Assembly (NCBI GenBank): GCA_041489155.1
Contig: JBGPQP010000018.1
Location: 1 to 16,486, forward strand
Source: Candidatus Aenigmatarchaeota archaeon
GTDB lineage: Archaea > Aenigmatarchaeota > Aenigmatarchaeia > QMZP01 > QMZT01
Direction: 5' to 3'
Length of the DNA stretch: 16,486 bases
Below the pieces are notes generated by a model. The model was not told the origin of the DNA and made no database searches. It saw nothing but the letters and a program-made list of their open reading frames with translations. Both the position numbers and the translations under genes were made by a program. The first letter of the stretch is position 1. Every line of letters starts with the position of its first letter. This document shows positions 1 to 7,706 of the stretch, piece after piece.

Positions 1-1
1 C

Positions 2-364
2 AGCCACTCCTCCCACGGTTCCCATTCAAGCCACGGCTCCCACGCCAGCCACTCCTCCCACGGTTCCCATTCAAGCCACGGCTCCCACGCCAGCCACTCC
101 TCCCACGGTTCCCATTCAAGCCACGGCTCCCACTCCTCCCACGCCAGCCACGGCTCCCACGGCTCCCACTCCTCCCACGGTTCCCATTCAAGCCACGGCT
201 CCCACGGCTCCCACTCCTCCCACGGTTCCCATTCAAGCCACGGCTCCCACTCCTCCCACGCCAGCCACGGCTCCCACGGCTCCCACTCCTCCCACGCCAG
301 CCACGGCTCCCACGGCTCCCACGCCTCCCACTCCTCCCACGGAAGTTGCTGGACGTGCCAGTAA
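2..364 (+). CDS. hxsA: His-Xaa-Ser repeat protein (HxsA-like putative precursor), 5'-truncated by the window edge
   Basis: Frame +2 reads S-HSS-HGS-HSS-HGS-HAS-...-HAS-HSS-HGS-CWTCQ-stop (TAA 362-364). There are 38 consecutive H-x-S units at 5-346 (18 HGS, 14 HSS, 6 HAS). Nucleotide variation is synonymous in this frame (CAC/CAT; TCC/AGC/TCA/AGT; GGT/GGC/GGA). hxsB/hxsD-like genes lie 3-5 kb away. Absent from the ORF track because the start codon is outside the window. Confidence 0.88.
   Translation, partial: SHSSHGSHSSHGSHASHSSHGSHSSHGSHASHSSHGSHSSHGSHSSHASHGSHGSHSSHGSHSSHGSHGSHSSHGSHSSHGSHSSHASHGSHGSHSSHASHGSHGSHASHSSHGSCWTCQ
5..346 (+). repeat. Coding 9-bp tandem repeat array (CAY-NNN-Ser codon) with higher-order 45-bp unit
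   Basis: 38 x 9-nt units. 5-49 and 50-94 are identical 45-mers (CACTCCTCC CACGGTTCC CATTCAAGC CACGGCTCC CACGCCAGC), 95-130 repeats the first four blocks, and later blocks are shuffled. Confidence 0.97.
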
Positions 365-437
365 ATTCTGAGAAATCATAAAAGAAAATATTGCTAAAAG
401 CTTAACTTTAAAAACTAGATTTTTGACCGCAAAAGCT

Positions 438-1619
438 TTAGCACATCGCCACTTTTTTGTAAACCTCGGACAACTTTTGAGCGAATATTTTTCCATCCAC
501 GTTTTTGGAATTGCTTTTAACTCTTCTGCCTATCTCATTGGCCTTTTCAGGATTCTTTACAATCCATTCAAGTCTTTTGGCATAAGCAGCAGTATCCCTA
601 GGTTCAACAACTATAACGTCAATATTGTCTTTTAATGTTGCGAAGGAAGGCTTCCTGTGGGTTTCCTGACTTATCACGACGCATTTACCGAAATAGAAGG
701 CCTCGTATGCCGTGAGCGGGGTGTGCATTTTCACAGGGAAATCAACCTCCGTTGCAATCAGGGCCGTAATGGAATTGTATAATAGCGGCATTGCCCATGG
801 AGGCTGATAGTCCAGGATTTTGGTTTTCTTTTGCAGGCCAAATTTACATAAATAGTGTTGTATGGAATCCCTGCCTGACTCCGGCGCCATGAGCAAAAGA
901 AAATCATTATCCTTTATTTTTGAAAGCGCTCTAAGCAGTTCTATCATGCCTTTGTTTTTTGAAATTTTACCGAAGCAGCCTATTATCGGTACTTTGTCGC
1001 AGGCTCCTATTTTTTTAAGAAAAGCCCTTATTTTTGCGCGGGAGGCATCGTCTTTAATGCTCATGCCAAAATCGCTTAAACATTCTATTTTATCTCTGGG
1101 TATACCCAGATTGAGCATGTCTTCAAGTTTAATTGGATCTAAGATTATCCGGTCGCTCTTTTTCAACATCTCTGTCAGAAGTTTGCTGTAAAGAGGGCTC
1201 CTCAGGAGATAAGTTATGTCGCTGCCCCCGTGCCTGGTGACCAGAGGCTTCCCTGTGATTAGTTTTGAAAAGAAGCCGGCAACTCCGTAGGGAATGAAAT
1301 ATTTGGTGTCTATGAGGTCTATGCTGTTTTCTCCTATGACGTCAACGACCAGATTTACCAGCGTGGAGATTCTTGACTTCACAAGAAGGTCCTTTTCATA
1401 TTCAGGTGCGTGAACCTTCACGTTCCTCGGCTCATAACCCCTCATCTGCTCCTTGTCTAGATTTTCAAGGTAGTTTTCACCCTCCTCGGCATGATTCGTG
1501 ACAATATGTATTTTATGCCCCATTTCACCGAGGGTTCTTGCAAGCCAGTAATTTATACTTGCACTTCCGCCCGTGTGAGGGGGGTATTTGCCTATCATGC
1601 ATATGTTCGGTCTGCCCAT
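438..1619 (-). CDS. Glycosyltransferase, GT-B fold, GT4-like
   Basis: N-terminus ICMIGKYPPHTGGS...LARTLGEMGHKIHIVT, PLVTRHGGSDI, GKISKNKG and C-terminal PLTAYEAFYFGKCVV are typical of GT4/RfaB-like enzymes. AGGAG SD precedes the ATG. Confidence 0.88.
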   Translation of the reverse strand: MGRPNICMIGKYPPHTGGSASINYWLARTLGEMGHKIHIVTNHAEEGENYLENLDKEQMRGYEPRNVKVHAPEYEKDLLVKSRISTLVNLVVDVIGENSIDLIDTKYFIPYGVAGFFSKLITGKPLVTRHGGSDITYLLRSPLYSKLLTEMLKKSDRIILDPIKLEDMLNLGIPRDKIECLSDFGMSIKDDASRAKIRAFLKKIGACDKVPIIGCFGKISKNKGMIELLRALSKIKDNDFLLLMAPESGRDSIQHYLCKFGLQKKTKILDYQPPWAMPLLYNSITALIATEVDFPVKMHTPLTAYEAFYFGKCVVISQETHRKPSFATLKDNIDVIVVEPRDTAAYAKRLEWIVKNPEKANEIGRRVKSNSKNVDGKIFAQKLSEVYKKVAMC

Positions 1620-4716: not shown

Positions 4717-4971
4717 TCACAACCCAGCTCTATTATTCTTTACTTCAGCAAGCAAATAGTTGATGAAGTTATATGTCATCTCTTCGATTCTCAAATCACT
4801 TACCTTAAGATTCAGCGTAACTATCATATTTTCGTCCATTTTTTTAATTCTAATATCCGCGACTTTTCTGAAATCATCCGCAACCTTTCTTATAACACGT
4901 TCAGGGTAGAAATCATATCTGAGCTCAAGTTCAGCTCTTTTTCTTTTTTTGTCTATTTTCAGGTTTCTCAT
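4717..4971 (-). CDS. Small HxsD-like protein (84 aa)
   Basis: Pattern FYPERVIRKVADDF...YNFINYLL parallels IYPLEIIYSASYVF...NDFNNELLNY of the upstream HxsD. Strong GGAGG SD inside the hxsD 3' end, 41-nt overlap with hxsD, and ends 4 nt before the hxsB ATG. Confidence 0.7.
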   Translation of the reverse strand: MRNLKIDKKRKRAELELRYDFYPERVIRKVADDFRKVADIRIKKMDENMIVTLNLKVSDLRIEEMTYNFINYLLAEVKNNRAGL

Positions 4972-5515
4972 TTTCAGCCTCCTTTGGCGGCGTCCATGGT
5001 TTCGCTATTCCAAGTGGGTCATCGATAACGAAATCTTCTCCTGCTGGTTCGCTCTCTTCCTCGTGTTTTTCGCAAGTTGGACAATATTTCTCTCCGCACT
5101 CTTCGCATAAGATGAGTTCACATCCACATTTTTCGCAATATTCCTCATCCTTTTCAGAGACCTCCTTTTGTAAATTCGTCACCAAAGCCCTTTCTATTAT
5201 TGCCTTTCTCAGAGGCTGGTTTCTTACCGCCTGCACGACATAAACAGCATAGTTTAGAAGTTCATTGTTGAAGTCGTTGCCCAAATTTTCAAGGTTTTCC
5301 GTCTTGCTTTTGGGTTTCATCTGGATGAATATCTTTCCCTGCGGGTTGCCGTCTATCAGTATGTAAGCCCTGTCCAGAAATACATAAGAAGCAGAATAGA
5401 TGATTTCAAGCGGATATATTTTAGAGTTTACTGAAATTGTCAAAAAATTATTCTTCCTGTCGATTTCTATATTCCTCAGCACCCTGTCTTTATTTTTATA
5501 TGAGTTTTTAACCAT
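4931..5515 (-). CDS. hxsD: His-Xaa-Ser system protein HxsD with Cys-rich insert
   Basis: IYPLEIIYSASYVFLDRAYILID...DFNNELLNY...LRKAIIERAL matches the HxsD pattern. It is followed by CEKCGC-x4-CEEC-x4-CPTC and DDPLGIAKPW. AAGGTG SD upstream. Confidence 0.8.
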   Translation of the reverse strand: MVKNSYKNKDRVLRNIEIDRKNNFLTISVNSKIYPLEIIYSASYVFLDRAYILIDGNPQGKIFIQMKPKSKTENLENLGNDFNNELLNYAVYVVQAVRNQPLRKAIIERALVTNLQKEVSEKDEEYCEKCGCELILCEECGEKYCPTCEKHEEESEPAGEDFVIDDPLGIAKPWTPPKEAENEKPENRQKKKKS

Positions 5516-6545: not shown

Positions 6546-7706
6546 TTACAAGCCCGCATCTTTTTTCAGCGCTTCGGCCTTGTCCGTCTTCTCCCACGTG
6601 AAATCAGGGTCGTTCCTGCCGAAGTGGCCGTAGCAGGTCGTTTTGCTGAATATCGGCCTTCGGAGCCTGAGCTCTTCTATCATGTGCGCTGGCCTGAAGT
6701 CGAAATGCTTTTTGACGATTTCAACTATCCTTTCGTCCGGTATCCTGCCAGTTCCCTCCGTATCCACGAATATCGATATCGGTTCGCTTCCGCCGATCGC
6801 GTAAGAAACCTGCACCTCGCACCTGTCGGCAAGGCCAGCTGCAACGATGTTTTTCGCCACGTATCTGGCATAGTACGCTGCTGTCCTGTCGACCTTCGTC
6901 GGGTCCTTGCCGGAGAAAGCGCCGCCTCCATGGCTGCCCATGCCGCCGTAGGTGTCGGCTATGATCTTCCTTCCCGTGCAGCCGGAATCGGCAACAGGGC
7001 CACCCATCACGAATCTTCCTGTGTTGTTTATGAAGTATTTTGTCCTTTCATCAACCAGCCTGCCGCAAACAGGTTTGATGACATGCTCCTTTATGTCCTT
7101 CCTCAGCTTTTCCAGATCGACATCAGGATCGTGCTGAGCTGCCACGACAACAGAATCGATCCTTTTCGGAACGCCTTTCTCATACTCGACCGTGACCTGG
7201 GTTTTGCCGTCCGGCCTGAGATATTTCAGGGTTCCGTTTTTCCTCACTTCAGCGAGTTTGAAGGCAATCTTATGCGCAAGGGCGATAGGCATCGGCATGA
7301 GTTCGGGCGTTTCCCTGCATGCGTAACCGACCATCATACCCTGATCCCCCGCGCCAACCTCTTTTTTCTCGCTCTTGTCAACACCCAAAGCTATGTCAGG
7401 GCTCTGCTCGTGTATCGAGACCAGAATGCCGACAGACTGATGGTCAAAGCCGTATTCGGGTTTTGTGTACCCAATGCGTTTAAGAACTGAGCGCACCACT
7501 CCCTGCACGTCAACATAAGTCTTTGTCGTTATTTCTCCTGTTACGACTATGAAACCCATTCCCGCCATCGTTTCACAGGCAACTCTCGCGGTAGGATCTT
7601 CCTTTATTATCGCGTCCAGGACCGCGTCCGAAATCTGGTCGCATACCTTGTCTGGATGACCCTCTGTCATCGCTTCTGACGTAAATAGAAACTTCCCGTT
7701 TTTCAT
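6546..7706 (-). CDS. metK: S-adenosylmethionine synthetase, bacterial/eukaryotic-type
   Basis: [80 protein letters not shown] upstream. Confidence 0.98.

Follow-up and report, generated by a model that had tools for sequence, protein, structure and literature searches.

An extreme-length member of an archaeal, A24-linked Hxs variant, its His-Xaa-Ser array probably broken over two contig ends

Introduction

What does an unbroken run of His-Xaa-Ser (HxS) triplets at the very edge of an archaeal contig encode, and is its product a substrate of the radical S-adenosylmethionine (SAM) enzymes whose genes lie beside it? The question is raised by the first 364 nucleotides (nt) of a 16,486-nt stretch of Candidatus Aenigmatarchaeota DNA (hereafter, the window; G000:C18:1-16486), which belongs to a genome of 1.13 Mb in 39 contigs that is 89.65% complete. 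A model that had seen only the sequence of the window proposed that the run is an extreme precursor of the HxsA type (hereafter, the original prediction). Here it is reported that the array gene is an extreme-length member of an archaeal, A24 peptidase-linked Hxs variant, which is named in NCBIfam and for which no paper was found in the literature searched. The whole reading, which is rather likely to be correct, is that of one hxsA-type gene, broken within its repeat in the assembly, whose product is modified by maturases, trimmed by an A24 peptidase and displayed at the cell surface.

The best-studied point of comparison is the HXS system of Escherichia coli, which was shown in 2026 to stop phage DNA entry and in which HxsA is matured by HxsB, HxsC and HxsD (PMC13128918). 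In E. coli, HxsA is N-terminally processed and exported, and all five of its repeats are needed; the chemistry, a shift of +8 Da on one repeat, is described as unsolved, and the protein as insoluble and hard to handle (PMC13128918). The paper assigns 99.7% of HXS systems to Pseudomonadota and mentions neither archaea nor a peptidase (PMC13128918).

The His-Xaa-Ser array

Translation of positions 2 to 364 in frame +2 gives a Ser, 38 uninterrupted H-[G/S/A]-S triplets, the sequence CWTCQ and a TAA stop codon. On recount by script the triplets comprise 18 HGS, 14 HSS and 6 HAS, and these figures and the CWTCQ ending agree exactly with the original prediction; 38 consecutive matches to a motif fixed at two of three positions far exceed chance. 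The codon counts bear out the alternation described there for His (33 CAC, 5 CAT) and for Ser (36 TCC, 5 TCA, 11 AGC, 1 AGT). Since Ser is drawn from both of its codon families, between which no single synonymous step leads, selection on frame +2 can be argued. All three forward frames are open across the array, so that the warning of a wrong frame being picked by gene callers is plausible. The other two forward frames and a minus-strand open reading frame (ORF) at 3-236 were considered and set aside, as they are open yet have no support from homology or continuity. A scan of window positions 1-700 for sigma-70 promoters and intrinsic terminators returned no match and is uninformative for an archaeon.

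The array also has a higher-order structure. Tandem Repeats Finder identified a unit of 117 nt (13 triplets) present in 2.7 copies with 91% matches and no indels, and this block periodicity implies that the array grew partly through recent block duplication. Its G+C content is 0.68, compared with 0.48 for the window. The ORF leaves the left edge of the window because base 1 of the window is base 1 of contig C18.

One gene over two contig ends

The original prediction proposed extending the gene leftward to find its start and any leader, and treated the lack of a plausible start as grounds for abandoning the reading. In a six-frame scan of the whole genome, just two sites had at least four HxS in a row, one in the window and the other at C22:5-139 (-), and a start codon and a conserved leader were indeed found at the second of these, on the end of contig C22. 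There, a 125-codon ORF that is open at its 3′ end begins with GTG, 6 nt after AGGTGA, and encodes a 79-residue HxsA3-type leader with a hydrophobic segment followed by 15 HxS. The order of its parts is a basic N-region, the hydrophobic segment, AAAHTNSFDISW...TAKHGHH and the 15 HxS. The C22 and C18 ends have 8 identical bases in common, in frame. A direct join would yield a protein of at least 243 amino acids (aa) with at least 53 HxS; this join is inferred from the uniqueness of the two halves, synteny and the 8-nt overlap.

Several findings support the join. The genome holds one 3′-open N-terminal half and one 5′-open C-terminal half, each at a contig end, and both ends carry Hxs-linked genes, whose counterparts are contiguous in the relative G005. 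The G005 array gene has the identical GSCWTCQ end beside the same glycosyltransferase gene. A similar split occurs in the relative G014, with the leader at the end of its contig C2 and the tail at the start of its contig C7. In complete orthologs a single ORF encodes leader, array and Cys-containing tail, and leader and HxS array share one ORF in L017 (148 aa, 61.2 bits with HxsA4), L059, L051, L055, L058 and P0111-P0114.

In Logan contigs of public sequencing runs, the array falls apart into unitigs 41-72 nt long, none of which bridges C22 and C18. Loose unitig ends at places 38 and 52 were examined as a possible bridge and rejected, as they consist of C22-type sequence with about 32 nt in common with the window. 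By a rough depth estimate for run X1, which may be the source sample, the unitig depth ratios (5.0, 1.8, 2.2, 1.5 and 3.4) track the assembled copy numbers (4.8, 2.0, 2.0, 1.0 and 2.5). The unassembled part is therefore probably short, with few window-type units missing.

Family identity and array length

In NCBIfam profile searches, the C-terminal half scored 68.9 bits with HxsA4 (NF038313; cut-off 55), or 59.9 bits in a genome search with its neighbors in frame; the score is due to the repeats, which align to model positions 53-92. With HxsB and an HxsD-like protein over cut-off in the same window, the proposed HxsA-type identity holds. Neither half matched the bacterial HxsA model TIGR03979 at E<=1, and no Pfam domain exceeded its cut-off in either half. 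The Pfam Collagen model (19 bits, under cut-off) and models of streptococcal collagen-like adhesins were dismissed as reflecting period-3 composition only, the middle residue being Gly in just 18 of the 38 triplets. For the leader (residues 1-82), HxsA3 gave 25.4 bits, under its cut-off of 65. The leader is nevertheless a divergent relative of the HxsA3 domain by its sequence, since its alignment spans HxsA3 positions 2-81 and 24 of the 25 aligned leader members match that model; on HxsA4 the alignment covers positions 37-92. With respect to the NCBIfam models as a group, the locus is alike in that the C-terminal half exceeds the HxsA4 cut-off, the 84-aa neighbor exceeds that of HxsD_rel and a 309-aa enzyme has its best match in HxsC4; it is unlike them in that the leader lies under both cut-offs and the HxsC4-like enzyme scores far below its own. 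The literature search found no paper naming HxsA3, HxsA4 or HxsC4.

Among 64 leader representatives the longest HxS run has a median of 1 and a maximum of 7, and complete close orthologs (150-167 aa) carry 17-24 HxS, so that the repeat number here is several-fold higher than in these orthologs or in the 93-position HxsA4 model. With at least 38 HxS proven, and at least 53 if the halves join, the array is the longest among those compared. It is the end of a continuum and not a different thing: the full-length protein P0069 (534 aa) contains 43 uninterrupted HxS followed by SCGCPF and a domain of about 340 aa. The epithet "extreme" in the original prediction is thus apt in degree (at least 38 repeats against 5 or 17-24) and inapt if taken to mean unique.

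P0069 belongs to a set of metagenome proteins (P0069, P0073-P0075; 484-534 aa) that resemble the present protein in their kind of leader and their long uninterrupted arrays, of 43 HxS in P0069 and 18-22 in P0073-P0075, which close with S-C-x(1-5)-C. They differ in having, besides S-C-x-C-P-F, a conserved C-terminal domain of about 340 residues, which the window protein lacks, and in a leader without the AAAHTN...HGHH block. A word-index search found no leader relatives longer than 220 aa, a weak negative given that HMMER found the 367-aa P0009. Sister arrays with other periods include H-x-T (P0036) and H-S-S-C or S-C-H-x-S units with a Cys in each (P0006, P0041 and P0044). Long H-x-S, H-x-D or H-W-S arrays without the leader occur in seemingly unrelated proteins, namely P0070, P0076, P0081, P0077-P0079 and P0082, some of which begin with the array.

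The leader family and its distribution

A full HMMER search with leader residues 1-82 retrieved 64 cluster representatives at E<=1e-3, including 7 at E<=1e-10. The family consensus reads P-x-I-K-K-K-I-x-x-F-L-x-x-E-x-G-x-I-S-K, followed by a hydrophobic segment, HTN and H-x-H-H-x-S-H; F21, G27, G38, H77 and H80 are invariant in the alignment. After this last motif the proteins diverge: some have 1-3 HxS ending in S-Y, some 10 HxS and a Tyr, some 17-24 HxS and a Cys-containing tail, and others Hint/intein-like domains or Thr/Ser-rich or Cys-rich cores. The tails seem to fall into two classes, one with a terminal S-Y and one with S-C-x(1-5)-C. A terminal S-C-x-x-C follows the arrays of G000, G005, G014, G092, L051 and P0069-P0075, and short members ending in ...H-x-S-Y at the stop codon were seen in L049, L050, L055, L057, L058, L068, P0007, P0015 and others.

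Further members depart from the simple pattern. In P0009, L054:7992-8678 and L061:6825-8132, the same leader and a few HxS are fused to one or two Hint/intein-like domains, and the intein N- and C-terminal models match one such protein, which suggests self-cleaving or self-ligating substrate variants. In L056:234-980, L063:1762-2502, L067:3013-3390 and L060:7941-8498, the leader occurs without an HxS array in a retained setting of peptidase, HxsD and HxsB genes. Their cores are (TST)n-rich, Cys-rich with CTT(A/G) repeats, or Pro-rich. In one further leader gene, L065:7653-8246, the core reads as X (masked N).

The original prediction had expected long HxS arrays to co-occur with maturase genes, and this expectation was borne out for the leader-bearing relatives. 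When the ORFs in 20 flanks of leader genes from 18 genomes were compared by blastp, HxsD was found in 17 of the 20 and HxsB (at least 40% identity) in 16. Across the phylum, the HxsA3 model matched 21 of 371 genomes, none over cut-off, and the HxsA4 model 16, two of them over cut-off; the count rests on these two profiles and may miss leaderless or divergent arrays. Related loci were gathered with HxsB as the single query protein. HxsB exceeded its cut-off in 7 of 41 relatives and in none of four other genomes of the same genus, a patchy distribution that marks the cassette as accessory. In at least six genomes an array abuts a contig end: G000 and G014 (two cases each), G005, G035, G310 and G092. 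Assemblies thus break long arrays systematically, and counts of them are too low.

The A24 peptidase and the leader

On C22, a gene for an A24 prepilin-type peptidase lies among the Hxs-linked genes. A second A24 gene on contig C6, presumably the housekeeping prepilin peptidase, marks the C22 copy as a dedicated paralog. Homologs of the C22 peptidase were found by blastp in 18 of the 20 flanks of leader genes, the two misses being contigs of 4.0 and 3.2 kb, and the peptidase is also present in G005, G014 and G035. In an alignment of 18 peptidases D22, N30, D85 and K87 are invariant, and we take D22 and D85 to be the two catalytic aspartates of the A24 family.

A complex of the peptidase with leader residues 1-82 was modeled, with both partners given as alignments. 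The interaction prediction score from aligned errors (ipSAE) was 0.81 (0.80, 0.81 and 0.81 in separate runs) against 0.00 for the best of three controls; a score of 0.81 is reached by 116 of 157 solved complexes and by 2 of 215 mismatched pairs. The runs agree in at least 83% of contacts, with a predicted local distance difference test (pLDDT) score of 54-55 for the partner. In the model, leader residues 20-52 contact peptidase residues 22, 26-30 and 79-88 and the transmembrane groove. This supports binding of the leader to the A24 peptidase, where the model places it on the two invariant aspartates.

The best candidate for the cleavage site, judged from the alignment, is Gly27, an invariant residue with a charged one before it in most members. 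In the present leader, R26-G27 suits the start of a class III cleavage motif, but Q-I-L-K-H-R comes next and the hydrophobic stretch begins near residue 34; residues 1-31 include 8 Lys and Arg and 2 Asp and Glu. In classical class III signal peptides the hydrophobic helix begins at the cut, with a charged residue, Gly or Ala and then a hydrophobic stretch, and PibD, FlaK and EppA are archaeal prepilin-type A24 peptidases. The likeness to these systems consists in a basic N-region, a Gly before the hydrophobic segment and a GxGD-type aspartyl peptidase encoded next door; the differences are the polar and basic residues between Gly27 and the hydrophobic segment and an N-region that is long and conserved. 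The latter is consistent with a second role as a docking site for the maturases. No paper combining a prepilin peptidase, radical SAM and His-Xaa-Ser was found in the literature search.

Gene neighborhood and maturases

The features of the locus are collected in Table 1. HxsB, whose CxxxCxxC motif reads CNMRCVYC, has its closest relatives at 83-85% identity in sequences recorded as Candidatus Aenigmatarchaeota or "uncultured archaeon". The gene for the 84-aa protein, here called HxsD2, shares 41 nt with the end of hxsD and is conserved between hxsD and hxsB in relatives; the 194-aa HxsD reads NELLNYAVY where LLNDYxLRE is expected. The glycosyltransferase of family 4 (GT4) has a counterpart in G005 (L023:5997-7169, 63% identity) in the same place beside the 3′ end of hxsA. 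The S8 protease, which is probably exported, was found at this position only in G005 (57% identity) among the loci examined, and the pair of genes is limited to G000 and G005 among the loci compared. Archaeal ribosomal proteins L18, L19e and S2 are encoded in the window as well and identify the organism as an archaeon.

Table 1. Coordinates of the array gene and associated features; positions without a contig name refer to the window.
Feature	Position	Strand	Remarks
hxsA-type gene, 3′ end	2..364	+	C-terminal 120 aa; TAA at 362-364; 5′ half is G000:C22:2-376 (-) if the halves join
GT4 glycosyltransferase, 393 aa	438..1619	-	PF00534 56.5 bits, PF13439; convergent with hxsA
S8 subtilisin-like serine protease, 499 aa	1707..3206	-	PF00082 128.9 bits; N-terminal hydrophobic anchor, Cys-rich tail
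HxsB radical SAM/SPASM maturase, 482 aa	3264..4712	-	TIGR03978 423.1 bits (cut-off 370); Radical_SAM and SPASM
HxsD-like protein HxsD2, 84 aa	4717..4971	-	NF038315 HxsD_rel 41.9 bits (cut-off 41)
HxsD-like protein, 194 aa, with C-terminal Cys4-type zinc-ribbon-like tail	4931..5515	-	TIGR03976 44.5 bits (cut-off 50); weak Zn-ribbon match
A24 peptidase of the Hxs cassette	G000:C22:2649-3758	+	PF06819 and PF01478 over cut-off
Second A24 gene	G000:C6:50184-50519	+	Other copy in the 1.1-Mb genome

The genes diverging from the hxsA start on C22 encode, besides the A24 peptidase, a radical SAM/SPASM enzyme, an HxsC4-like enzyme (309 aa; NF038332 168 bits, cut-off 500), three B12-type radical SAM enzymes and a family 2 glycosyltransferase. 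Of the components of an HXS system, HxsB is present over its cut-off (423.1 bits against 370), the HxsD-like protein reaches 44.5 of 50 bits, and no HxsC-type enzyme adjoins hxsB; with the HxsC model (cut-off 267.9) the C22 enzyme scored 111.6 bits and a C17 enzyme 198.2. The 2023 PADLOC library returned only generic viperin-type and subtilase matches and nothing Hxs-specific.

Two further observations concern genes outside this set. Three HxsC-like radical SAM paralogs lie at the end of contig C17 (G000:C17:13778-17204, -), the best with 198 bits against TIGR03977, under cut-off; the Hxs locus may continue there, on a further piece that the assembly left separate. Methionine adenosyltransferases of archaea are usually of a type of their own. 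A bacterial-type enzyme is encoded at window positions 6546-7706 (-; TIGR01034, 580 bits), about 1 kb from the radical SAM cassette, and may be an acquired gene for SAM supply.

Comparison with the bacterial HXS system

Like HxsA of E. coli and Klebsiella (TIGR03979), the present protein is of the exported, tandem-HxS type and is encoded beside HxsB and HxsD; E. coli HxsA has a signal peptide of 22 residues, five repeats with many basic residues and a domain that binds peptidoglycan, in a gene order of D-B-C-A (PMC13128918). In contrast, the archaeal protein has at least 53 repeats (if joined) in which x is Gly, Ser or Ala only, no further domain and a CxxC tail, and its gene order is different. 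Instead of a short signal peptide, it has a leader of about 59 residues plus a hydrophobic segment. The archaeal locus also encodes enzymes beyond those of the E. coli system, namely the A24 peptidase, the S8 protease, the GT4 glycosyltransferase, a second SPASM enzyme and the three B12-type radical SAM enzymes. After the leader, 57 His, 76 Ser, 26 Gly and 12 Ala make up most of 186 residues, and charged residues are almost nil. Because x is never basic and a wall-binding domain is lacking, a charge-based mechanism would depend on the protonation of His.

Alternative explanations

Two alternatives concern the gene itself. It is very improbable that two different genes are involved, with a short hxsA that includes the leader on C22 and another gene on C18 for a leaderless or otherwise-led HxS protein, in which case 53 repeats would be an over-count. 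No sequence joins the contigs, whose exact overlap is just 8 nt, and the repeat units differ, with Ser-Ser encoded as TCT-AGT on C22 and as TCA-AGC with CAT on C18; arrays without a leader do exist, such as P0077-P0079, which begin with the array. Yet exactly one 3′-open and one 5′-open half occur in the genome, which has no other run of at least four HxS, and G014 shows the same single pair; moreover, complete orthologs unite leader, array and Cys-containing tail in one ORF, and the cassette parts found here at two contig ends lie together in G005. It is barely credible that the array was produced by faulty assembly, through the collapse or chimeric joining of a low-complexity repeat, and is no real coding sequence. 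Its position at a contig end, its G+C of 0.68 against 0.48 and its shattering in short-read assemblies are what such an artefact would share, whereas the same sequence words recur in the data of several studies, with two runs containing 0.88 of the words sampled, the depth ratios in X1, possibly the source sample, follow the assembled copy numbers, contigs of two runs link the array directly to the unique 3′ end and its stop codon, and independent genomes have homologous arrays that end in the same tail.

The other alternatives accept a single gene and differ over its product. A type IV pilin-like subunit, whose hydrophobic helix would drive filament assembly after A24 cleavage and carry the HxS array along, would account for the dedicated A24 paralog linked to the leader family, for the predicted placement of the leader helix in the peptidase and for an invariant Gly27 mostly preceded by a charged residue. 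It is distinctly unlikely: the locus showed neither a pilus assembly ATPase nor a platform gene, charged residues follow Gly27, the hydrophobic segment is short and weak, and the conserved AAAHTN after the helix looks equally like a site for signal peptidase or the S8 protease. The product might also have nothing to do with viruses and be a metal-handling polymer (a Ni, Zn or Cu sponge) or an adhesive surface polymer of an episymbiotic DPANN cell, the radical SAM step serving maturation and export only. The part after the leader is about one third His and nearly uncharged, the arrays of many relatives lead into a Cys pair, and one relative has a weak match (18.7 bits, far below cut-off) to ZrgA, a His-rich zinc-uptake protein; x is never basic, unlike in the E. 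coli repeats (PMC13128918). This explanation, although a serious rival, is rather unlikely, as the genes of the locus included no recognizable metal transporter or metallochaperone, and the patchy spread of HxsB among relatives, with no match over cut-off in the four same-genus genomes, fits an accessory or defense cassette at least equally well.

The reading of one maturase-modified, A24-trimmed and surface-displayed HxsA-type protein also has points against it. The N-terminal half falls under the cut-offs of both HxsA4 (46.8 bits; cut-off 55) and HxsA3 (NF038309, 31.3 bits; cut-off 65), and the HxsD-like protein and the HxsC-like enzyme are below their curated cut-offs (44.5/50 and 168/500). 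That C22 and C18 join is itself an inference. The peptidase-leader complex is a model with a low-confidence partner and leaves the scissile bond unspecified. The hydrophobic segment is only moderately hydrophobic (19-residue Kyte-Doolittle maximum of 1.52 at residues 40-58), and the basic residues K31, H32 and R33 after Gly27 make the leader unlike classical class III signal peptides. In addition, the E. coli mechanism depends largely on repeats rich in Arg and on a domain that binds peptidoglycan, neither of which is present here, and with a single modified repeat in E. coli, modification of a whole array is without precedent there (PMC13128918).

Proposed mechanism and significance

On the reading preferred here, the conserved leader would dock HxsB, HxsD, the HxsD-like protein and probably the HxsC4-like enzyme in the cytoplasm, and modification would take place at or after the invariant H-x-H-H-x-S-H motif. 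The terminal Cys pair is possibly the target of the second SPASM enzyme, as can be guessed from the few loci in which the two occur together. The hydrophobic segment would then enter the membrane with the N-terminus inside, and the dedicated A24 aspartyl peptidase would cut off the leader near Gly27 at the cytoplasmic face. The His/Ser array would thereby be exposed on the outer side of the cell, within possible reach of the S8 protease, itself probably exported, and of the GT4 glycosyltransferase. By analogy only, with the HXS system of E. coli as the one case in which antiphage function is shown, it could serve as an envelope-level barrier to the entry of virus DNA.

A bolder version, which is quite unlikely and is offered as speculation, would have all of the at least 53 HxS modified repeat by repeat by the radical SAM enzymes of the locus (HxsB, the HxsC4-like enzyme, the second SPASM enzyme and the three B12-type enzymes), yielding a ribosomally made, regularly cross-linked or C-alkylated His/Ser polymer. 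Released by the A24 peptidase, this polymer would form a pH-gated polycationic or metal-loaded coat on the DPANN cell, which would keep virus genomes out or bring about contact with the host cell, and its length would be tuned by duplication of the 13-triplet block.

The archaeal variant provides the natural extremes of the HXS substrate, from minimal peptides with two repeats to an array of at least 53 (if joined). The linkage to an A24 peptidase points to export and trimming of a cytoplasmically modified protein via the prepilin pathway, a route for which no paper was found. The arrays break short-read assemblies and are hence under-counted and mis-called in archaeal metagenome-assembled genomes. 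With dozens of identical sites, the protein would show a large, readable mass shift if every repeat were modified and none beyond one site otherwise, so that the action of HxsB and HxsC on H-x-S becomes directly testable. The main use of the finding would thus be as a natural many-site substrate for solving Hxs chemistry.

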